From the NCBI RefSeq assembly GCF_036507355.1, contig NZ_AP027877.1: a DNA stretch of 64,000 bases. One strand, written 5' to 3'. The notes beneath the pieces were generated by a model. The model had not been told where the DNA came from. It saw nothing but the letters and a program-made list of their open reading frames with translations, and did not search any database. Both the position numbers and the translations under genes were made by a program. The stretch comes from Escherichia coli. GTDB lineage: Bacteria > Pseudomonadota > Gammaproteobacteria > Enterobacterales > Enterobacteriaceae. Shown here one piece after another: positions 8,010 to 18,188 of this stretch; position 1 is the first letter of the stretch, and the number at the start of each line of letters is the position of its first letter.

Positions 8010-8411
8010 GTGGGAACCAAAGTGTCAGATATGCAGAAAAATGTGACTCCCGGCAGGCGAAAAGGCTGCCCTAATTATCCTCCCGAATTTAAACAGCTGC
8101 TCGTTGCTGCCTCCTGTGAACCCGGGATATCCATCTCAAAACTTGCTCTTGAAAATGGCATTAACGCCAATCTGTTGTTCAAATGGCGACAACAATGGCG
8201 CGAGGGAAAGCTGCTATTACCTTCTTCAGAGAGCCCCCAGCTACTTCCTGTGACTCTCGATGCAGCTGCCGAACAGCCAGAATCGCTCGCAGAGGACCCG
8301 GAAACCCTCAGTATCAGCTGTGAGGTAACGTTCCGGCACGGGACGCTCCGCTTCAATGGCAATGTCAGCGAAAAGCTCCTGACTCTGCTGATACAGGAAC
8401 TGAAGCGATGA
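8010..8411 (+). CDS. IS66-family accessory protein (orfA / TnpA-like)
   Basis: 133-aa ORF with HTH-like N-terminus (ISKLALENGINANLLFKWRQQW), typical of IS66 orfA. Confidence 0.7.
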   Translation: MGTKVSDMQKNVTPGRRKGCPNYPPEFKQLLVAASCEPGISISKLALENGINANLLFKWRQQWREGKLLLPSSESPQLLPVTLDAAAEQPESLAEDPETLSISCEVTFRHGTLRFNGNVSEKLLTLLIQELKR

Positions 8412-8755
8412 TCCCGTTACCTTCCGGGACCAAAATTTGGCTGGTTGCCGGTATCACCGATATGAGAAATGGCTTCAACGGCCTGGCTGCGAAAGTACAA
8501 ACGGCGCTGAAAGACGATCCCATGTCCGGCCATGTTTTCATTTTCCGGGGCCGCAGCGGCAGTCAGGTTAAACTGCTGTGGTCCACCGGTGACGGACTGT
8601 GCCTCCTGACCAAACGGCTGGAGCGTGGGCGCTTCGCCTGGCCGTCAGCCCGTGATGGCAAAGTGTTCCTTACGCAGGCGCAGCTGGCGATGCTGCTGGA
8701 AGGTATCGACTGGCGACAGCCCAAGCGGCTGCTGACCTCCCTGACCATGCTGTAA
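8408..8755 (+). CDS. IS66-family orfB (TnpB-like)
   Basis: 115-aa ORF; MIPLPSGTKIWLVAGITDMRNGFNGLAA... is the IS66 Orf2 signature; start overlaps the orfA stop (ATGA). Confidence 0.75.
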   Translation: MIPLPSGTKIWLVAGITDMRNGFNGLAAKVQTALKDDPMSGHVFIFRGRSGSQVKLLWSTGDGLCLLTKRLERGRFAWPSARDGKVFLTQAQLAMLLEGIDWRQPKRLLTSLTML

Positions 8756-8804
8756 ATCTCTTTATCCTGGTTGTCACAGAATAAGCCCGGTAAAATACGG
8801 GCTT

Positions 8805-10190
8805 ATGAACGACATCTCTTCTGACGACATCTTCCTGCTAAAACAGCGCCTGGCCGAACAGGAAGCGCTGATCCACGCCCTGCAGGAAAAGCTGAGCAAC
8901 CGGGAGCGCGAAATAGACCATCTGCAGGCGCAGCTGGATAAACTCCGCCGGATGAACTTCGGCAGTCGTTCCGAAAAAGTCTCCCGCCGTATCGCACAAA
9001 TGGAAGCCGATCTGAACCGGCTTCAGAAAGAGAGCGATACGCTGACTGGTAGGGTGTATGACCCGGCAGTACAGCGTCCGTTGCGTCAGACCCGCACCCG
9101 TAAGCCGTTCCCTGAATCACTACCCCGTGACGAAAAGCGACTGTTGCCTGCGGCGCCGTGCTGCCCGAACTGCGGCGGTTCACTGAGCTATCTGGGCGAG
9201 GATACCGCCGAACAGCTGGAGTTGATGCGTAGCGCCTTCCGGGTTATCCGGACGGTACGGGAAAAACATGCCTGTACTCAGTGCGATGCCATCGTGCAGG
9301 CACCTGCACCTTCGCGGCCCATCGAGCGGGGTATCGCCGGACCGGGGCTGCTGGCCCGCGTGCTGACCTCGAAGTATGCAGAGCACACCCCGCTGTATTG
9401 CCAGTCAGAAATATACGGCCGGCAAGGTGTGGAGCTGAGCCGTTCACTGCTGTCGGGCTGGGTGGATGCATGCTGCCGGCTGCTGTCTCCGCTGGAAGAG
9501 GCGCTTCATGGCTATGTCATGACTGACGGCAAACTCCATGCCGATGATACCCCGGTCCAGGTACTGCTGCCGGGTAATAAGAAGACGAAGACCGGGCGGT
9601 TGTGGGCGTATGTTCGTGATGACCGCAATGCCGGGTCAGCGTTGGCACCTGCAGTGTGGTTCGCTTACAGCCCGGACAGAAAAGGCATCCATCCGCAGAC
9701 TCATCTTGCTTGCTTCAGCGGTGTGCTGCAAGCGGATGCGTACGCCGGGTTCAACGAGCTGTATCGCAATGGTGGGATAACGGAAGCTGCCTGCTGGGCT
9801 CATGCCCGCCGAAAGATCCACGATGTGCACGTCCGCATCCCGTCAGCACTGACGGAAGAAGCCCTAGAGCAGATCGGTCAGTTGTACGCCATAGAGGCGG
9901 ATATAAGGGGAATGCCGGCAGAGCAGCGGCTTGCTGAACGTCAGCGAAAAACGAAACCGCTGTTGAAATCCCTGGAAAGCTGGTTGCGTGAAAAGATGAA
10001 GACCCTGTTCTTCGGCTCTGGCCATGGTGGTGAGCGGGGAGCGCTACTGTACAGCCTGATCGGGACGTGCAAACTGAATGACGTGGATCCAGAAAGCTAC
10101 CTTCGCCATGTGCCTGGCGTCATAGCAGACTGGCCGGTCAACCGGGTCAGCGAACTGCTTCCGTGGCGCATAGCACTGCCAGCTGAATAA
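8805..10190 (+). CDS. IS66-family transposase (orfC / TnpC), probably carrying an internal in-frame deletion
   Basis: 461-aa ORF with leucine-zipper N-terminus, CxxC...CxxC zinc motif and DDE region; about 50 aa shorter than typical IS66 TnpC, with the conserved region before LFFGS.GGERGA apparently missing. Confidence 0.7.
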   Translation: MNDISSDDIFLLKQRLAEQEALIHALQEKLSNREREIDHLQAQLDKLRRMNFGSRSEKVSRRIAQMEADLNRLQKESDTLTGRVYDPAVQRPLRQTRTRKPFPESLPRDEKRLLPAAPCCPNCGGSLSYLGEDTAEQLELMRSAFRVIRTVREKHACTQCDAIVQAPAPSRPIERGIAGPGLLARVLTSKYAEHTPLYCQSEIYGRQGVELSRSLLSGWVDACCRLLSPLEEALHGYVMTDGKLHADDTPVQVLLPGNKKTKTGRLWAYVRDDRNAGSALAPAVWFAYSPDRKGIHPQTHLACFSGVLQADAYAGFNELYRNGGITEAACWAHARRKIHDVHVRIPSALTEEALEQIGQLYAIEADIRGMPAEQRLAERQRKTKPLLKSLESWLREKMKTLFFGSGHGGERGALLYSLIGTCKLNDVDPESYLRHVPGVIADWPVNRVSELLPWRIALPAE

Positions 10191-10428
10191 CACATCCCCG
10201 TCAATACGGCCCTCGCTGTACGCTTACTTTTGTTCGGACTGCTTATGGCCTTTTTCCACTGGTGTAGCAGGAAAGTTAACCGGCTGCCACCATGAGATGA
10301 CGTGTAAACCGTGCAGGCATGTTTTCACGTGGTGACGCTTTCATTGGGGGTCTACGCCGGAACCCCAATATTGTTCACATACATGAATTTGAAAAACTAA
10401 GCGATACTGCTGTCCGTACCTTATAAAC

Positions 10429-11787
10429 TTATTTCAACGCTTCCGGCAGCGTCACAATCCACAGTTCACTGTCAGACTCCGGTTTCTCCAGTGGCTTCAC
10501 TCTGAGGGTCGTTTCAACCTGCTTGTCGTCAAGCGTCAGCTTTCCTTCCGCGTTCACCCGATAATCCTTGAATGTCTTGCCCTCGACCGGATGTTGCATC
10601 GCCACCTTCACGCCAAAGTCGTTATCGTTCGCCACCGCCAGCGTTTTGCTGTCGATCAGCGCCAACCCTTCAGCCTTCTCCTGCTGCCAGCCCAAGGAGC
10701 GCAGATCAACAACCTGCGTTTTCTGCGCAAGGGTAATGCCGCGCTGTGACAGGGTTTTCTCATCATCAAACTCCGGATACTCACCCGGCTTGTCGAAGCC
10801 TGACAGGTCGCTCGCCTTATTGAGATCGACCTCGTAAATCAGGTTACGCATTCTGTTGTTTTTATCTCTTCCCTGTTCGATCAGCAGGATGTGCTGGTTA
10901 TCGAGCGCCACGATGTCTCCGATTTTAGCGTCGCTGTTTTTGCTGTAGGCCGCGCTGTCGATAGGATAACCGTACATCGCGGTTTTTCCGCTTGCCGGAT
11001 CGAAGCTCACCAGACGCGTAAACAGCGCCTTTTTCTTGCTCTTAGCGTCGATATCCAGCGTACTTTGCACGGCGACAATAATACGCCCGTCCGGCATACG
11101 GGTGAGGCCTTCAAAGCCGCGGTTCGCCTGACGCCATTTGAGGATATTTGGCAAACCGCCCGCAATCGCTTTTTCCCCTTCCGCCGCCTGCGGACCGTGG
11201 ATTGCCAGGATTTTCCCTTTACTGTCGATGTTAATCAGGAACGGGCCATACTCATCGCACAGCCAGTAACCTCCTTTACCATCCGGAGTGATCCCTTCCG
11301 TATCCAGCCCGCGATTATCCCCCTTCAGTCTATGTAACGTGTCGCTGAAGGCCACTTCATTGGTGGAGCCAATCACGTCGCTTGCCAGCGGCAGACCGTT
11401 GATCGCGCCTTTATCGTCATGCAGAGGACGGGGATCGATGGCCTCCGCTTTGCCGTTTTGTACACGAATCGTCATCAGCAGCGGCGCGAAATCTGGCGTA
11501 ACGAAAATTTTAGTTTCGTTTTTCCCCTCTTTCGGTGAATCCGCGTTCGGACCGCGATCGGTAATGGTTGCGAATGTCAGGGCATCGCCCTGTTTACCGG
11601 TGAACAGCAGGCCAGAACCTATCCCAACCGGAAGGCCGTTCGGGAATGCACTGGCAAATGCGCCGGCGTAGTTCACGTGCGTGCCTTCTGGAAAACTGAC
11701 GACATAGCGCTCAGCCGTAGGTTGTGCCGCCAGGGCAGAGAAAGAGAGCGTACAACCGATTAGCACGGGAATAATTTTTCTTTTCAT
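10429..11787 (-). CDS. Secreted phytase-like / esterase-like beta-propeller protein
   Basis: ORF 10429..11802(-); signal peptide MKRKIIPVLIGCTLSFSALAAQP; sequence resembles 'esterase-like activity of phytase' family proteins from memory; no catalytic motif verified. Confidence 0.45.
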   Translation of the reverse strand: MKRKIIPVLIGCTLSFSALAAQPTAERYVVSFPEGTHVNYAGAFASAFPNGLPVGIGSGLLFTGKQGDALTFATITDRGPNADSPKEGKNETKIFVTPDFAPLLMTIRVQNGKAEAIDPRPLHDDKGAINGLPLASDVIGSTNEVAFSDTLHRLKGDNRGLDTEGITPDGKGGYWLCDEYGPFLINIDSKGKILAIHGPQAAEGEKAIAGGLPNILKWRQANRGFEGLTRMPDGRIIVAVQSTLDIDAKSKKKALFTRLVSFDPASGKTAMYGYPIDSAAYSKNSDAKIGDIVALDNQHILLIEQGRDKNNRMRNLIYEVDLNKASDLSGFDKPGEYPEFDDEKTLSQRGITLAQKTQVVDLRSLGWQQEKAEGLALIDSKTLAVANDNDFGVKVAMQHPVEGKTFKDYRVNAEGKLTLDDKQVETTLRVKPLEKPESDSELWIVTLPEALK

Positions 11788-12059
11788 ATTGTTAGCATCC
11801 ATAAAGTGAAGATCACACTACACCATAAAGAAGAAACGAGTCAGGAAAATGACATCGAATGGCAACATGCGCGGGCCTGAGGCCAAAGAAATGTAAAACA
11901 CTGTTGTTATTTGTAACAACGGAAACATTTACGGAAATTATTTGTCTTTCTTCGTGATCAAAAATGCTGTGTCTTGTTGGATTGGAGTGATGAGGGCTGC
12001 GTTTAGGAAACGCCCTATATTGTACGGTTGCATTATCGCGGTAGGGGTAATGCACGTGT

Positions 12060-12200
12060 CAGTATGATGAGCTGACCACACTCACGTGGGTGGACTGGTA
12101 TAACAATCGACGATTGCTGGAAAGGCAGGGCCATATCCCACCGGCAGAAGCAGAAAAAGCTTATTATGCTTCCATCGGAAACGATGATCTGGCAGCCTGA
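12060..12200 (+). pseudogene. IS3-family transposase C-terminal remnant
   Basis: Translates to ...QYDELTTLTWVDWYNNRRLLERQGHIPPAEAEKAYYASIGNDDLAA*, the typical C-terminal tail of IS3-family OrfB; the upstream part of the gene is absent. Confidence 0.4.
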
Positions 12201-12298
12201 GTTCACAGATAAAACACTCTCCAGGAAACCCGGGGCGGTTCACTTAGCCGCGTGTCCATTATTGCTGGATAAGATCATAACGAGGTAATGACTCCAAC

Positions 12299-12802
12299 TT
12301 ATTGATAGTGTTTTATGTTCAGATAATGCCCGATGACTTTGTCATGCAGCTCCACCGATTTTGAGAACGACAGCGACTTCCGTCCCAGCCGTGCCAGGTG
12401 CTGCCTCAGATTCAGGTTATGCCGCTCAATTCGCTGCGTATATCGCTTGCTGATTACGTGCAGCTTTCCCTTCAGGCGGGATTCATACAGCGGCCAGCCA
12501 TCCGTCATCCATATCACCACGTCAAAGGGTGACAGCAGGCTCATAAGACGCCCCAGCGTCGCCATCGTGCGTTCACCGAATACGTGCGCAACAACCGTCT
12601 TCCGGAGCCTGTCATACGCGTAAAACAGCCAGCGCTGGCGCGATTTAGCCCCGACATAGCCCCACTGTTCGTCCATTTCCGCGCAGACGATGACGTCACT
12701 GCCCGGCTGTATGCGCGAGGTTACCGACTGCGGCCTGAGTTTTTTAAGTGACGTAAAATCGTGTTGAGGCCAACGCCCATAATGCGGGCTGTTGCCCGGC
12801 AT
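12299..12802 (-). CDS. insB: IS1 InsB (expressed as InsAB' by -1 frameshift)
   Basis: Translation ...[74 protein letters not shown]... matches IS1 InsB. Confidence 0.85.
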
Positions 12803-12996
12803 CCAACGCCATTCATGGCCATATCAATGATTTTCTGGTGCGTACCGGGTTGAGAAGCGGTGTAAGTGAACTGCAGTTGCCATGTTTTACGACAGTGAGA
12901 GCAGAGATAGCGCTGATGTCCGGCGGTGCTTTTGCCGTTACGCACCACCCCGTCAGTAGCTGAACAGGAGGGACAGCTGATAGAAACAGAAGCCAC
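12721..12996 (-). CDS. insA: IS1 InsA
   Basis: [43 protein letters not shown]... identical in character to IS1 InsA. Confidence 0.85.
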
Positions 12997-13065
12997 TGGA
13001 GCACCTCAAAAACACCATCATACACTAAATCAGTAAGTTGGCAGCATCACCGGCCTCGCATTTAA

Positions 13066-13911
13066 TTATTCATTTAAAGATTCAAGAAATGTCCAGCCTT
13101 TATGAGTAACATAATACATTTGTCCTTTTGCCCCTCTTTCAATCACAAAATCAAAGGATAACAGTTCGTTAAGTGCGCCCTCCCAACGGGCTACCTCTCT
13201 AGCCGAACTTCCACCAAAGGATTGATTTCCCGCTTGAATATCCGTGCCACCTAAATGCCTTATCACATAAATTGTTCCGCTATCATCGACACATGCCAAT
13301 TTCAGCAAACTGAGTGCATCGGCGGACAAATTACTTTCTGGCAAAGATTGACTTGTATTCGCATCAGGAGAATTGTTAATGGTAGATATAAGAGAAGACA
13401 AATAAGGGCTACTAGAAATAATTATCGAAAGTTGCCTACGGACTTTGTCTTTGAAATCAGATAAGTCATTAAAAGACTCTATCAATCCCTTTTGCATGCA
13501 CTCAATTTTGAACAATTTAAGAGACTCATATTGTTCTCTATCAAGGCTTTCAGGGGCAACAGGCTTTGAGGAAAAGTAAATCATTGCCGGTTTTCCCGCA
13601 TTCAAATGACGGTGAATTTCTTCGACTGTTCCGCTGGCCTCGTTCCCAGTCGGTGAGCCTAGACGAGTCCAAAACACACCGATTAATAAATCACAATCTA
13701 CTAATAATCTTTGATTAATCAACTCCTGAGGCCTAACTCCTAATTCGGGTGATGTATGAGTTTCCCATCCAATTGGTGTCAACATTACTTTTGAACGAGC
13801 TGAATTTATATCATTCCACTCATGGATCATTTCACGAATGACTTGTCTCTCTTCAGCGACATCACCAGGAGAAGCAATCATTACAGGGATAACAGTTGCT
13901 GTGTAAGCCAT
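13066..13911 (-). CDS. Hypothetical protein with N-terminal DUF4062-like (TIR/STIR-like) domain and uncharacterised C-terminal domain
   Basis: 281-aa AT-rich ORF with GGAGAG RBS; N-terminus VMIASPGDVAEERQVIREMI...CDLLIGVFWTRLGSPTG...SGTVEEIHRHLNAGKPAMIYFSS fits the DUF4062 pattern as I recall it; start lies 14 nt after the recombinase stop; IS1 ends 14 bp past its stop. Confidence 0.5.
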   Translation of the reverse strand: MAYTATVIPVMIASPGDVAEERQVIREMIHEWNDINSARSKVMLTPIGWETHTSPELGVRPQELINQRLLVDCDLLIGVFWTRLGSPTGNEASGTVEEIHRHLNAGKPAMIYFSSKPVAPESLDREQYESLKLFKIECMQKGLIESFNDLSDFKDKVRRQLSIIISSSPYLSSLISTINNSPDANTSQSLPESNLSADALSLLKLACVDDSGTIYVIRHLGGTDIQAGNQSFGGSSAREVARWEGALNELLSFDFVIERGAKGQMYYVTHKGWTFLESLNE

Positions 13912-13924
13912 AAACTCTCCATAT

Positions 13925-14485
13925 TCAATCGGTAATAGCTGCTACAGTCGCTCTTGAAACGCCATATTGACGCGCTAACGCACTGATACTCAAACCGCTA
14001 TTCTTTTTCTCTAAAATCTCTCTACGGGCTTCTGACGCGATTTTAGGAGGTCTGCCCAATTTCTTACCTTCGGCTTTTGCTCGTGATAGTCCCGCCTGAG
14101 TGCGCTCAATCAGCAGATCACGCTCCATCTCCGCAACCGCGGCGAGCATAGATAATAGCAACTTCCCAGCGGCAGAAGTGAGATCTGTGTTACCAAGCTG
14201 GTGGACAAGAACCTTGATATTACGGTCAGCCAGCGCCCTTACCGTTTGCAGGACGTCAATCGCATCACGCCCCAGACGATCAAGCTTCGCTACCACCAAC
14301 GTTTCACCATCGCGGATTTTATTGAGCATTTCAGAAAATGCTTTACGTTGCATTGCCGGAACCTTCCCGCTAACAACATCGGCAAACCAGTAATCAATTT
14401 GCCACCCAGCCTGCCCAAGCTCCAGCCGTTGGTTCTCAGTATCCTGCTGCGATGTCGAAACACGTCCGTAGCCAAAAGTTGCCAT
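13925..14485 (-). CDS. Small serine recombinase (resolvase/invertase family)
   Basis: ORF 13925..14554(-); true start likely MATFGYGRVSTSQQDTENQ (catalytic Ser motif GYxRVSTxxQ) with GGGGAG RBS; C-terminal HTH SISALARQYGVSRATV; about 186 aa. Confidence 0.75.
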   Translation of the reverse strand: MATFGYGRVSTSQQDTENQRLELGQAGWQIDYWFADVVSGKVPAMQRKAFSEMLNKIRDGETLVVAKLDRLGRDAIDVLQTVRALADRNIKVLVHQLGNTDLTSAAGKLLLSMLAAVAEMERDLLIERTQAGLSRAKAEGKKLGRPPKIASEARREILEKKNSGLSISALARQYGVSRATVAAITD

Positions 14486-14507
14486 TGTTATCTCCCCATC
14501 TGACCCC

Positions 14508-14604
14508 TGCCAGAAAACGAGGCCAACATTAGGATGGCCTGCCAGAAAAGCCAAGGCTATTTTTCCAACAGTGTGAAAGCGTGCGATTGGGAGGTGCCAG
14601 AAAA
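14508..14604. repeat. Three direct copies of TGCCAGAAAA upstream of the serine recombinase start; candidate res-like binding sites/operator
   Basis: TGCCAGAAAA at 14508-14517, 14540-14549 and 14595-14604 (spacings 32 and 55 bp), 23-120 bp upstream of the recombinase start codon. Confidence 0.4.
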
Positions 14605-15460
14605 CGGTCGATTGATGACACCATCAAACACTAACAGTGTGCCCCGGCAACGCGCGCCTGCAACGGTTGTCTCGGATGAGCAAAATCTTAGGGTTTTCTC
14701 AGCGACCCCTGACGCGCGGGCACGCACATGCTCACGGGGGCGCGGGCGAGCTATACAGTTGAGGGAGGGGCAACCATAAGCGTGCAATTTTTCAAGCCGG
14801 GGATTCAGCTATAGGCTAACGGTAGAATGCGGCTTGTAGAGGGTTGTGCGCACATACCCAGTACAATCGCATTACTCCACGCGCACAAACCCCGGAGAGC
14901 CGCTTGCGGTGGGGGTTTAAGAGGTACAATTTTTGGTTCGGGTCATAAAGGACTTTTGAGAGCTGACTTAGCTTATTTAAACTGCATTCGTCTTGGCTAT
15001 GGAGACACGAGGCAGCTCAAGTTTTGTTCAAAACTTTGCAATATTTTGGTTCGATCTCATGTTCTCGTGCTAAAGAAATCAGCACTCGATCAAATTTTCA
15101 TTTTTTTTCTGAAACATTGACATACAGCCTAAGCCTTAAGGCACGTAGGGTTGGTCGAAATTTCCCTTTGACAACCTCAATTTAACCTCAAAATCAACCC
15201 TTGTACTGCAAAGAATCCTAACTAGAATGCTGAACATGTAGGGGGGAATCTTATTAACACACCCTATATGTTGTGCTCATGTATAAATGATGGGCATAAA
15301 AAAACCGGAGTCACCTGCGTGAATCCGGTCTATGAAGCATGACCGCCATGAGTCTGCAAACTCATAACGATTGTTAGCCTCACTATCGTTTCTAACGGCT
15401 CGATTGTGCCCGGCTTGGTTGGTTATGTAAACAGTAAGATAAAATCAAAAGGAACGATCC

Positions 15461-16375
15461 ATGCTTATTCAGAAAAAGCGTATTCGAAATATTGATAATT
15501 ACATACCTAACTTTGATGGCCGTGATATCTACATTGCACATTCTTTGCCAGATGCGGGGAAAACGGACTCTATTGGTTTCTCAAGTCAAAGAGCTTTAGG
15601 TGAAGAAGTCCTCCCCAAGATTTTAGGGCCAATAACCAGATTCAATGCTAATGGCAAATCAGTACCTGACAAAACAGCACCTAAAGAAACTGCATACAGA
15701 CAAATTTCATGGACTAGAAAGCAATGGATCGGAGGGGGCGCAACTCAAGAAGTTACTGACACTCGTGAAATTGAGTATAAGCGCTACAAGAGAATCCTCA
15801 CCCCTCCACCAAGCATAGAGTTAAAGATTGTAGAGAATCTTCAAGGGGAGAAGTTGATCATCTCTCCAAAGCTAAGTTTGACAGCTAACAACAAAGAGTT
15901 AGTGGCTCACTGCATTAATCTTTTTTTAGAGCTTTTTGGGTTGTGCGAAACTGTTGACGACCAACTTAATACCATCGTTAAAAGTAAATCTATAAAACTA
16001 AACTGGAGCCTCCTGCCTCAGGGTCAACAGCCTTGGAGTACTATCGGTTCAAAAATCCTTTCAGCTATTAAGATCAGGGGAAAGGGCAATACCGCTGTTG
16101 TTGAAGGCAGACTTGAACTTATCAATAGTAAAAAACCAGATTTCGTAGCGGTTGGGCAAGCTGGGTTCCAAGGCTACGTGATATTTGGGTTCACAGGCCA
16201 AAACATTTACGTGCTAGAAAGCTCACAATGTAATAACGCAACTTATATACTTAACAATAATTGGCAGCAGTTATCCCAGCTAACTAAAGCCGAAATACTA
16301 GACGGAAACTTGCACCATGCCCGTGTCATCCACCGTGTAAACTGGGCAGCAGAAATACTTAAATACTTACCATAA
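15461..16375 (+). CDS. Hypothetical protein (304 aa), AT-rich orphan gene adjacent to leuX
   Basis: Uninterrupted 304-aa ORF with RBS AAAGGAA upstream; strongly AT-biased codon usage; no motif I can assign; ends ~510 bp from the tRNA 3' end. Confidence 0.5.
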   Translation: MLIQKKRIRNIDNYIPNFDGRDIYIAHSLPDAGKTDSIGFSSQRALGEEVLPKILGPITRFNANGKSVPDKTAPKETAYRQISWTRKQWIGGGATQEVTDTREIEYKRYKRILTPPPSIELKIVENLQGEKLIISPKLSLTANNKELVAHCINLFLELFGLCETVDDQLNTIVKSKSIKLNWSLLPQGQQPWSTIGSKILSAIKIRGKGNTAVVEGRLELINSKKPDFVAVGQAGFQGYVIFGFTGQNIYVLESSQCNNATYILNNNWQQLSQLTKAEILDGNLHHARVIHRVNWAAEILKYLP

Positions 16376-16888
16376 AGCGCCGGACGCGCGGGAATGAACC
16401 CCCGCGCACTTTCAAACATACCGCAATAGAATCCATAAAGCCCCGTTGGTGGTAAGACAACAAGCGGAGCCTCTGGCGACTACATCACAGTTATGTCAGT
16501 TAGTGAGGCTTATCAGGATGACCATGTACCCAAGGGGAGCGAGGCCGAACCGCTGGCAGAGCTTGCATATGGTCTGCAAGTACCGTGACCACCATAAACC
16601 TGTTTATCCCCTGCGGCGTCTCGCGACAGCGGCAGAACGGGGGCATCGGGCTAAAATGCGCTTCACTAAAAGTTTTTGGGATTGTTTAGAGACAGTGGCT
16701 ACGTCATAGCTTTCAAGTTGAGTCAGTACGTGTTTGACGCTTGGAACTACACGCCGCTATGAGTTAACATCCCAATTACCACTATCAACCACAGCGGCTT
16801 TTTCAAGGGACATAACAGAGCATTTCTTACAGGCAAAAGAGACAGATTTTATTGTCTAACTACCTGTATTGTAAGGAATTTAGTGACT

Positions 16889-16973
16889 TGGTGCCGAAGG
16901 CCGGACTCGAACCGGCACGTATTTCTACGGTTGATTTTGAATCAACTGCGTCTACCGATTTCGCCACTTCGGC
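16889..16973 (-). tRNA. leuX: tRNA-Leu (CAA anticodon)
   Basis: Reverse complement reads GCCGAAGTGGCGAAATCGGTAGACGCAGTTGATTCAAAATCAACCGTAGAAATACGTGCCGGTTCGAGTCCGGCCTTCGGCACCA: 85 nt, long variable arm, CAA anticodon loop, 3' CCA. Confidence 0.9.
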
Positions 16974-17168: not shown

Positions 17169-18188
17169 ATGTCGATGATAAAAAGCTATGCCGCAAAAGA
17201 AGCAGGCGGCGAACTGGAAGTTTATGAGTACGATCCCGGTGAACTGAAGCCACAAGATGTTGAAGTGCAGGTGGATTACTGCGGGATCTGCCATTCCGAT
17301 CTGTCGATGATCGATAACGAATGGGGATTTTCACAATATCCGCTGGTTGCCGGGCATGAGGTGATTGGTCGCGTGGTGGCGCTCGGGAGCGCCGCGCAGG
17401 ATAAAGGTTTGCAGGTCGGTCAGCGTGTCGGGATTGGCTGGACGGCGCGTAGCTGCGGGCATTGCGATGCCTGTATTAGCGGTAATCAGATCAACTGTGA
17501 GCAAGGTGCGGTGCCGACGATTATGAATCGCGGTGGCTTTGCCGAGAAGTTGCGTGCGGACTGGCAATGGGTGATTCCACTGCCAGAAAATATTGATATC
17601 GAGTCCGCCGGGCCGCTGTTGTGCGGTGGTATCACGGTCTTCAAACCACTGTTAATGCACCATATCACTGCCACCAGCCGCGTTGGGGTAATTGGTATTG
17701 GCGGGCTGGGGCATATCGCTATAAAACTTCTGCACGCAATGGGATGCGAGGTGACAGCCTTTAGTTCGAATCCGGCGAAAGAGCAGGAAGTACTGGCGAT
17801 GGGTGCCGATAAAGTGGTGAATAGCCGCGATCCGCAGGCACTGAAAGCACTGGCGGGGCAGTTTGATCTCATTATCAACACCGTCAACGTCAGCCTCGAC
17901 TGGCAGCCTTATTTTGAAGCGCTGACGTACGGCGGTAATTTCCATACGGTCGGTGCGGTTCTCACGCCGCTGTCTGTTCCGGCCTTTACGTTAATTGCGG
18001 GCGACCGCAGCGTCTCTGGTTCTGCTACCGGCACGCCTTATGAGTTGCGTAAGCTGATGCGCTTTGCCGCCCGCAGCAAGGTTGCGCCGACTACCGAATT
18101 GTTCCCGATGTCGAAAATTAACGACGCCATTCAGCATGTACGCGATGGTAAAGCGCGCTACCGAGTGGTCCTGAAAGCCGACTTCTGA
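17169..18188 (+). CDS. ahr: NADPH-dependent aldehyde reductase (Zn-dependent alcohol dehydrogenase family)
   Basis: ORF 17127..18188(+); [45 protein letters not shown]..., zinc-ADH motifs (GHE, CxxC) and GxGxxG NADP site; matches Ahr/YjgB. Confidence 0.9.

Follow-up and report, generated by a model that had tools for sequence, protein, structure and literature searches.

A gene for a small serine recombinase stands directly upstream of, and on the same strand as, a gene for a 281-amino-acid (aa) DUF4062 protein in a stretch of 64,000 nt of Escherichia coli DNA (NCBI RefSeq assembly GCF_036507355.1, contig NZ_AP027877.1; the whole stretch is called the window below), and the question raised by this locus is whether the two genes form a dedicated and undescribed defence or recombinase-controlled module, as an original prediction made from the letters alone proposed, or whether each has its own reason to be there. 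Sequence comparison indicates that the locus is genuine and well defined but is not a new kind of system, the DUF4062 gene representing an NADase-type lineage carried as cargo in a resolvase operon. Neither of its halves is undescribed, as DUF4062 single-gene defences were reported in 2026 (Swarozyc, Evangelion) and the co-transcription of recombinase and defence genes in 2025. We consider it likely that the DUF4062 protein is a stand-alone defence protein that travels as cargo in the resolvase operon of a defence island. The two genes are laid out in the window as follows:

13066..13911, minus strand: DUF4062 gene, 281-aa product, stop codon counted in (list of open reading frames, ORFs)
13465..13911, minus strand: residues 1-149, predicted TIR-like/flavodoxin-like catalytic core (beta-alpha-beta AlphaFold2 (AF2) model, Foldseek, invariant columns)
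13324..13464, minus strand: residues 150-196, two-helix stalk (150-179) and Ser-rich disordered linker (~181-196) (AF2)
13069..13323, minus strand: residues 197-281, auxiliary (AUX) domain at the C-terminus, compactly folded and winged-helix-like in the model (AF2)
13912..13924, minus strand: intergenic spacer of 13 nt, carrying a GGAG ribosome-binding site (sequence)
13925..14485, minus strand: serine recombinase gene of resolvase type, 186 aa, ATG at 14485 and stop at 13925-13927 (ORF, Pfam)

The two genes are indeed tightly coupled, with a gap of 13 nt rather than the 14 first counted. Because the gap is this short and a terminator scan found no terminator-like site between the genes, we infer that they are co-transcribed. 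The same spacing recurs in the related loci L002-L005 and L089-L098 and is kept by every enterobacterial allele (proteins 60-83% identical), which, like the presence of recombinase sites upstream of the operon, would favour an obligate two-gene module in which the recombinase controls or cooperates with the DUF4062 effector through DNA rearrangement or sensing, a candidate for a new system. The distribution of the genes argues strongly in the other direction. At 80 species-level loci of the DUF4062 family, the recombinase lies directly upstream in three, all of them enterobacterial (L009-L011), while the other 77, including those of Stutzerimonas and Kangiella, have no recombinase and no conserved neighbour; all-against-all clustering of the genes within 4 kb of these loci yielded no neighbour common to more than six of them. 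Conversely, relatives of the recombinase and its upstream site are present in 754 of 5426 complete E. coli genomes, about 300 of which match over the site and recombinase only, while 387 of the 754 (about 7% of the 5426) carry the window-type DUF4062 allele. The slot behind the recombinase is occupied by two unrelated opposite-strand genes in O157:H7, is reduced to 157 bp in strain VCSW8, and in IncF and IncHI plasmids consists of ~400 bp with a 75-aa ORF of two predicted transmembrane segments and no DUF4062 remnant. Published DUF4062 systems also function as single genes, and the recombinase is dispensable in an analogous enterococcal bicistron (PMC12632615). A dedicated recombinase-DUF4062 module is thus very unlikely; by sequence, the two genes are not an obligate pair and the 281-aa protein is predicted to act on its own. 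In composition, the DUF4062 gene (~40% GC) is foreign relative to the recombinase gene (51%).

Two observations concern the joint between the genes. On E. coli IncFIB and IncHI1B plasmids (L099 6562-6961; L100), a 91%-identical recombinase with its site is followed by the ~400 bp encoding the 75-aa ORF, and then by a 165-aa gene, an IS1 and a phytase-like esterase gene, a neighbourhood also found at 10429-13051 of the window, which suggests movement of island fragments between chromosome and plasmids mediated by insertion sequences. The 90%-identity protein cluster of the DUF4062 protein (P0001) also contains 'recombinase family protein' entries of 76-197 aa, presumably a clustering artefact caused by gene calls that fused the two genes or read through the 13-nt gap.

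The assignment of the 281-aa protein as DUF4062/TIR-like with a defence-type signature, which the original prediction had made from the motif pattern, was borne out. The match to Pfam DUF4062 is weak (E 3.1e-4, residues 10-99) and that to the PADLOC candidate PDC-S60 strong (E 1.7e-26, residues 8-167 to model positions 5-169 of 906), while the top 50 matches of a fold search in AFDB50 are all labelled 'DUF4062 domain-containing protein' and are of similar size; Foldseek matches of the core are given below. PDC-S60 is a candidate rather than a validated system, goes unmentioned in the papers searched, and is matched by the N-terminal ~160 residues of the 281-aa protein over its first 169 positions, the remainder of the 906-position model having no equivalent here. 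At E <= 1e-3 the protein has 2158 relatives, mostly full length (~282 aa), the best 120 of which are nearly all 270-300 aa long and align end to end at 52-66% identity. A scan with one genome per species placed 214 loci of the family in Proteobacteria, Planctomycetota, Nitrospira, Chlorobi, Bacteroidota, Bacillota, Actinomycetota and other phyla. The N-terminal 168 residues alone retrieved 9137 cluster representatives, to which C-termini of varied length are attached.

The region beyond the core had been described as a Ser-rich C-terminal half without a motif, and is instead divided into three parts: a stalk, a short Ser-rich linker and a folded 85-aa domain. The AF2 model (predicted local distance difference test score, pLDDT, 78) has five parallel-type strands alternating with helices in the core, two long helices at 150-179, a disordered segment at 181-196 (pLDDT < 50 at residues 181-192) and a compact C-terminal domain, which reached a pLDDT of 90.7 when modelled by itself. 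In an alignment of 19 sequences, residues 1-120 are almost invariant, the C-terminal 85 residues moderately conserved and the Ser-rich linker variable. The conserved core elements are PxMIASPGDV, W49 with an acidic residue, CD74, FWTR and SGT-x-E97-E98-I; W49 is invariant and position 50 is Glu (E50), or Asp in 3 of the 19, while E97 and E98 (codons at 13618-13623) are both invariant and lie in the model at the start of the helix that follows strand C. For the core, Foldseek returned flavodoxin-like folds from the PDB, among them nucleoside 2-deoxyribosyltransferase 2a0k and the plant TIR domains 3ozi and 4c6s, at modest E values of 5.6e-4 to 1.6e-3; a PDB sequence search with the 281-aa protein gave no relative. 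The best PDB folds for the C-terminal domain are the winged-helix eS10, MarR-family and F93 structures (E >= 0.018, TM score 0.5-0.6), and Pfam gives a hint of HTH_45 (E 0.22), so that a winged-helix-like fold is weakly supported for this domain, the presumed sensor.

Diverged enterobacterial alleles of the protein retain 88-92% identity in the core and 39-54% over residues 121-281. The closest allele, P0003, is the exception within the variable parts: identities between the other alleles are 33-43% over residues 121-180 (87% for P0003), 12-44% over 181-196 (62%) and 39-54% over 197-281 (72%). The flanking genes stay similar among these alleles, at 84-87% for the recombinase, 77-91% for a 165-aa protein and 91-99% for a helix-turn-helix (HTH) protein. 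This pattern of a conserved core and a divergent C-terminal half fits, at the sequence level, an enzyme fused to a fast-changing sensor, as described in both of the recent preprints on DUF4062 proteins.

The first of these preprints (Osinski et al., bioRxiv 10.64898/2026.05.01.722283) describes Swarozyc, in which DUF4062 is a TIR-like NADase and a Klebsiella protein, KpSwz, defends as a single gene that needs both the catalytic Glu and the auxiliary domain. The second (Ibarra-Chavez et al., bioRxiv 10.64898/2026.06.25.731849) describes Evangelion, Eva01-Eva04, single-gene DUF4062 defences with a conserved core, containing a Q/W/E motif and a catalytic Glu, and a diversified auxiliary region. 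The function published for the family is conversion of NAD+ to ADP-ribose (ADPR) and nicotinamide (NAM) with abortive infection by one gene; KpSwz and Eva01 are the only ones for which NAD+ hydrolysis and phage protection have been demonstrated. A recombinase is mentioned in neither preprint. The 281-aa protein belongs by sequence to this DUF4062 TIR-like superfamily and has the same three-part layout. It shares with Swarozyc the core with its conserved candidate catalytic Glu, a helical stalk, a C-terminal HTH/winged-helix auxiliary domain, a comparable size, the single gene and the location in enterobacterial defence islands. The published Swarozyc residues (construct 16-C, D16, R18, D71, E97, W176, W238/Y239) do not map onto it; alignment by residue numbers failed at every offset tried, and in the core of the 281-aa protein the stretch from strand A to the catalytic Glu is ~14 residues longer. 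KpSwz (WP_341800075) and EcSwz (UPI0002A39D72) are absent from the accessions listed for the P0001 protein cluster.

With Evangelion, the protein shares the conserved core, the diversified AUX and a W-E motif (W49-E50 here, W51-E52 in Eva01). A tblastn search of plasmids with the 281-aa protein found 155 Enterococcus, 9 Rhodococcus, 5 Synechococcus and 1 Salmonella records, taxa and counts that closely mirror the Evangelion-positive set outside Staphylococcus. The enterococcal plasmid proteins differ in being ~35% identical (E about 1e-20), over the core only, and the AUX of the 281-aa protein is longer and winged-helix-like, its gene residing in a chromosomal island, not on a resistance plasmid. 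Plasmid pANL of Synechococcus elongatus PCC 7942 and 6301 (H122-H126) carries a full-length homolog, 42.5% identical over 279 aa, which on so well-studied a plasmid offers a convenient second model for the family.

By homology with these systems, the N-terminal part of the 281-aa protein would be a TIR-like NADase core whose catalytic Glu is most likely E97 or E98, and the C-terminal sensor would recognise a phage component, releasing autoinhibition and/or promoting oligomerisation, upon which the activated core would hydrolyse NAD+, killing or arresting the infected cell. For KpSwz, the trigger is the portal protein. The same data could be read as those of a protein that is not directed against phage here, such as an island maintenance or addiction toxin, a nucleoside- or NAD-metabolising enzyme, or a winged-helix DNA-binding regulator, since the catalytic core is unusually conserved across phyla (75-92%), the fold is equally near to nucleoside 2-deoxyribosyltransferases, some copies lie amid housekeeping genes, and the anti-phage function of the clade is predicted from homologs. 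We regard such a role as unlikely given the match to a PADLOC defence-candidate model, the packing of the host islands with Shedu, Gabija-like, RloB/AAA_21, type I restriction-modification (R-M) and AbiJ genes, the hypervariable C-terminal half that is typical of sensors, and the two independent studies reporting defence and NAD+ depletion for several DUF4062 lineages.

The upstream gene was predicted to encode a serine recombinase of ~186 aa with a C-terminal HTH, and this is what it encodes. Its N-terminus reads MATFGYGRVSTSQQ, and it matches Pfam Resolvase (1.4e-36) and, at the C-terminal HTH, HTH_7 (2.2e-5). The closest solved relative is gamma-delta resolvase (1.4e-25), followed by Gin invertase and Tn3 resolvase, and residues Y6, R8, S10, D67, R68, R71, E118 and E124 are conserved in the alignment to gamma-delta resolvase, placing the protein by sequence in the resolvase subgroup of small serine recombinases with its catalytic residues intact. 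It is set apart from Tn3 and gamma-delta by an identity of ~37% to gamma-delta resolvase, a by-eye estimate from the alignment, and by its surroundings, as the window island has no transposase near the resolvase gene and carries a cargo gene downstream in the resolvase operon. No Tn3-type transposase was found in the window region or among the annotated or Pfam-listed neighbours of 15 loci (+/-7 kb), terminal inverted repeats not having been searched for, so that the homologs are not confined to ordinary Tn3-family transposons, a possibility that the original prediction had named as counting against its own proposal.

A further parallel is found in RADS (Andersen et al. 2025, PMC12632615), in which a small serine recombinase shares a transcript with a defence gene but is not needed for the defence, the prototype being EF_B0058/EF_B0059 of pTEF2. 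RADS are defined by a recombinase at least 30% identical to EF_B0058 and a same-strand ORF no more than 100 bp downstream. The present recombinase is 34% identical (140 aa aligned) to the recombinase that pTEF2 encodes ahead of a DUF262 restriction gene and that from its position appears to be EF_B0058, and precedes the DUF4062 gene by 13 nt, so that the locus falls within RADS, a same-strand defence gene lying less than 100 bp behind the gene for a small serine recombinase. It differs in that the downstream gene is a DUF4062 gene, that paper mentioning neither DUF4062 nor a res site, and in that at the window locus a res site is defined and coincides with the boundary of cargo exchange.

This site includes three direct repeats upstream of the recombinase gene, which the original prediction had rightly likened to a res site. 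Copies of TGCCAGAAAA occur on the plus strand at 14508, 14540 and 14595, and a fourth copy, the only other one in the 64 kb, is at 17581; by chance 0.25 copies per window would be expected, and 0 of 100 shuffles reached four copies. An upstream alignment of ten island variants resolved the repeats into the gene-proximal half-sites of three subsites, which have two conserved half-sites apiece, six in all, each 12 bp long and of the TGCCAGAAAACG or TGCCAACAAACG type:

14508..14532, minus strand: res subsite III, accessory, gene-adjacent (sequence and alignment)
14540..14570, minus strand: res subsite II, accessory (alignment of ten island variants)
14595..14620, minus strand: res subsite I, presumed crossover site (site search and homology breaks)

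Together they span 113 bp (14508-14620), ending 23 bp before the ATG. On the coding strand, subsite I consists of inverted half-sites in a 12-2-12 arrangement, TGTCATCAATCG AC CGTTTTCTGGCA, with TGCCAACAAACG as the left half in most islands. Subsite II is likewise inverted, 12-7-12, TGTTGGAAAAAT AGCCTTG GCTTTTCTGGCA, and is conserved with coordinated variation in the ten variants, and subsite III is 12-1-12, CTAATGTTGGCC T CGTTTTCTGGCA, with half-sites that apparently form a direct repeat, resembling site II of Sin. The centres of subsites I and II are 52.5 bp apart and those of II and III 35 bp apart. The half-sites are kept in all ten variants while the surrounding non-coding DNA diverges. 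The res of Tn3 is 114 bp long and has sites for three dimers, crossover taking place at site I and the accessory sites differing in spacing. In Tn3 and gamma-delta the centres are 53 and 34 bp apart, and the spacers within the gamma-delta subsites are 4, 10 and 1 bp, compared with 2, 7 and 1 bp here. In both cases res lies directly upstream of the gene, with subsite I distal and subsites II and III gene-proximal, and the three repeats are thus predicted from sequence to mark a resolvase binding site that is a res of the Tn3/gamma-delta kind. Resolvase dimers would bind the three subsites, and recombination at subsite I would resolve multimers or tandem arrays of the island. Subsite III probably overlaps the promoter, and by analogy with the TnpR of Tn3 and gamma-delta, resolvase bound at subsites II and III beside the promoter would probably repress the operon and hold the co-transcribed, potentially toxic NADase at a low level.

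The sites and the recombinase were also weighed as parts of a phase-variation switch, in which a Hin/Gin/Pin-type invertase would flip a promoter segment and turn the NADase gene on and off. The best PHROG match of the recombinase is PHROG 125, 'DNA invertase' (1.2e-55), and Gin is almost as similar to it as gamma-delta resolvase. The hix and gix sites are 26 bp long, the same length as subsite I. A second 12-2-12 site in either orientation was found neither in the 64-kb window nor in nine related loci, each locus having one site, and this lack of a partner excludes an inversion switch. A search around the locus for an invertible segment, as a second or inverted copy of the site or as long inverted repeats, gave only chance-level short matches. 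Three differently spaced subsites also have the geometry of res rather than of a single crossover site, and the region is never inverted among the ten aligned variants, all of which makes a phase switch extremely improbable.

The place of both genes is best understood from the island that carries them, whose remaining features in the window are:

14621..16888, no strand assigned: left arm particular to the window's island variant (no homology to other left arms)
16889..16973, minus strand: tRNA-Leu(CAA) leuX, island integration site (ARAGORN and Rfam)
12284..13051, minus strand: IS1 copy truncating the island (insA/insB ORFs and terminal repeats)

In Enterobacterales, the backbone of these islands runs from a tRNA gene (leuX or thr) through an integrase of 636-652 aa (DUF6538 and Phage_integrase), slot 1, res and recombinase, slot 2, a 154-aa HTH regulator and more cargo to an att repeat. 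Slot 1 holds DUF1643, Shedu (SduA_C), RloB with AAA_21, a Gabija-like pair of AAA and UvrD genes, or DUF6119; slot 2 of the DUF4062 islands holds the DUF4062 gene and, on the opposite strand, a membrane protein of 164/165 aa; and type I R-M, SIR2, HNH, Sel1 or AbiJ genes lie past the regulator. In this slot, behind the resolvase gene and ahead of the HTH regulator of the island, the DUF4062 gene is AT-rich cargo and not the partner of the resolvase. Islands of the window type are similar to the mobile defence islands noted at E. coli hotspots that are 'integrase-only' and whose mobility is unclear, and the resolvase would be that of such tRNA-integrating islands of Enterobacterales.

The intact island of strain GTEN_23 measures 5.6 kb, its limits set by a 26-bp repeat of the 3' end of leuX, and the direct repeat that marks its far end lies at 10239-10264 in L001. 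The window island is a derived, truncated form. As originally described, it sits at tRNA-leuX and is cut by an IS1; the IS1 starts 14 bp past the DUF4062 stop, and homology to intact islands stops at 13052-13054. The accompanying suggestion that a downstream partner of the DUF4062 gene might have been lost found no support, since comparison with the intact islands L001 and L103 shows that what the IS1 took away was the distal att repeat together with the genes for the 164-aa membrane protein and the HTH protein, and both genes are backbone genes also found in islands without DUF4062. This divergent pair, a 164/165-aa protein and a 154-aa Xre-type HTH protein (L001 10755-11954; L004 6900-8101), is present in nearly all islands of the family, with or without DUF4062, and may be an island regulatory or maintenance module; the 164/165-aa protein has an N-terminal membrane segment and, among PADLOC, NCBIfam, PHROG and Pfam, matches only PHROG 20749 (function unknown).

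Comparison of the islands with one another placed the breaks in homology at subsite I. To the right of it, L089 and L090 share 99.9% identity over 4.2 kb and L094 and L097 share 98%, in both pairs with no homology to the left, while L004 and L010 are 94% identical over 1.3 kb to the left and 77% identical to the right. Between the window and the AMA1167 island (L103), 99.55% identity extends from 13054 to 14617, ending inside the left half-site of subsite I, and the sequence to the left is unrelated. The version of the left half-site goes with the left arm: CGCCAACAAACG with DUF1643, TGCCAACAAACG with three other arms, TGTCATCAATCG in the window and TGTAAGAAATCG in VCSW8. At the sequence level, this pattern is what two res-like sites would be expected to leave behind after crossing over at the centre of subsite I. 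From the homology junctions and the half-site versions, we infer that the resolvase is active now or was so recently and that res delimits cargo exchange; right arms 98-99.9% identical joined to unrelated left arms indicate that the exchanges are recent. Recombination at subsite I would thus also join differing cargo-bearing left arms to one right arm.

An island resolvase with its own res has a precedent in SGI1, also a resolvase within an integrative island, where the pair removes multimers and where insertions of 'res-hunting' elements upstream of island resolvase genes have been documented. Those insertions, and the classic res-tnpR organisation of the locus, are what would be expected if the unit were an inert relic of a Tn3-family transposon or of a plasmid resolution system, with the boundary at subsite I left by old events or by res-targeted insertions. 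The absence of a Tn3 transposase within +/-7 kb in any locus, the intact catalytic residues, the conservation of the half-sites within diverged non-coding DNA and the recency of the exchanges together make such a relic distinctly improbable, more so than the non-defence role considered above.

Several points weigh against a stand-alone defence protein carried as cargo in an operon whose res bounds cargo exchange. The sharp boundary at subsite I could come from insertions targeted to res rather than from crossover, the left half-site of subsite III was assigned by eye, a simple promoter scan found no sigma-70-like promoter on the coding strand within res, and autoregulation and co-transcription are deduced from the 13-nt gap and analogy. 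For the protein, the Pfam DUF4062 match is weak and the fold matches of the C-terminal domain lie below significance; NADase activity, phage defence and the trigger are, for this clade, read across from homologs, and the published residue numbering suggests that the protein probably belongs to another DUF4062 lineage than Swarozyc. No phage-borne copies of the family were found in the phage collection, and some members, for example in Kangiella, lie amid housekeeping genes without an island signature.

If a stand-alone defence protein of this kind is what the gene encodes, the locus would add a very widespread lineage (more than 2000 full-length homologs, many phyla) to the newly recognised DUF4062 NADase-type defences. 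It gives a concrete role to one small serine recombinase beside defence genes, with a definable res as the boundary of defence cargo exchange, and makes testable both the use of the recombinase to the island and the setting of the dose of a toxic effector by resolvase autoregulation. The res-bounded exchange is the sole moderately new point of the locus, which is otherwise a new example of known things. More speculatively, and doubtful in our own estimate, the resolvase and res might be a dedicated cargo-exchange joint of a widespread enterobacterial family of defence islands that integrate at tRNA genes, in which tandem islands at one att would swap whole defence arms through crossover at subsite I, with the NADase wired to the resolvase-repressed promoter for a burst on entry into a resolvase-free cell or upon repressor titration by extra res copies; this would be a resolvase-based analogue of cassette shuffling.

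Where sister islands have an integrase-NIPSNAP-DUF1643 arm, the window has a left arm of ~2.3 kb that occurs in 90 complete E. coli genomes. It comprises ~840 bp of non-coding DNA (14621-15460), a 304-aa ORF on the plus strand (15461-16375) and 458 bp of leuX-flanking DNA (16423-16880). Searches of Pfam, PADLOC, NCBIfam and PHROG gave no match to the 304-aa ORF, which could be defence cargo of an uncharacterised kind; an ORF of equal length at the far end of island L102 was considered as its counterpart and is unrelated, the length being coincidental. The 458 bp beside the leuX 3' end are ~97% identical to ~540 other E. coli genomes, with no annotated gene under the match in the sampled genomes, and may be a common att-proximal remnant. 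No non-coding RNA was detected in the ~975-bp gap at 14486-15460, Rfam giving only the tRNA and a sub-threshold potC match, and a 12-nt match of 15188-15199 to the leuX anticodon arm was judged to be chance. Within the otherwise AT-rich arm, 14640-14905 is a GC-rich (54-56%) non-coding stretch, without a match in Rfam, that contains an imperfect 23-nt inverted repeat (14829-14851 / 14881-14903). On the other side of the locus, the sequence downstream of the IS1 is a patchwork of insertion-sequence remnants from earlier rearrangements of tandem leuX islands, and IS66-family fragments at 8010-10227 of the window match L001 7983-8206.

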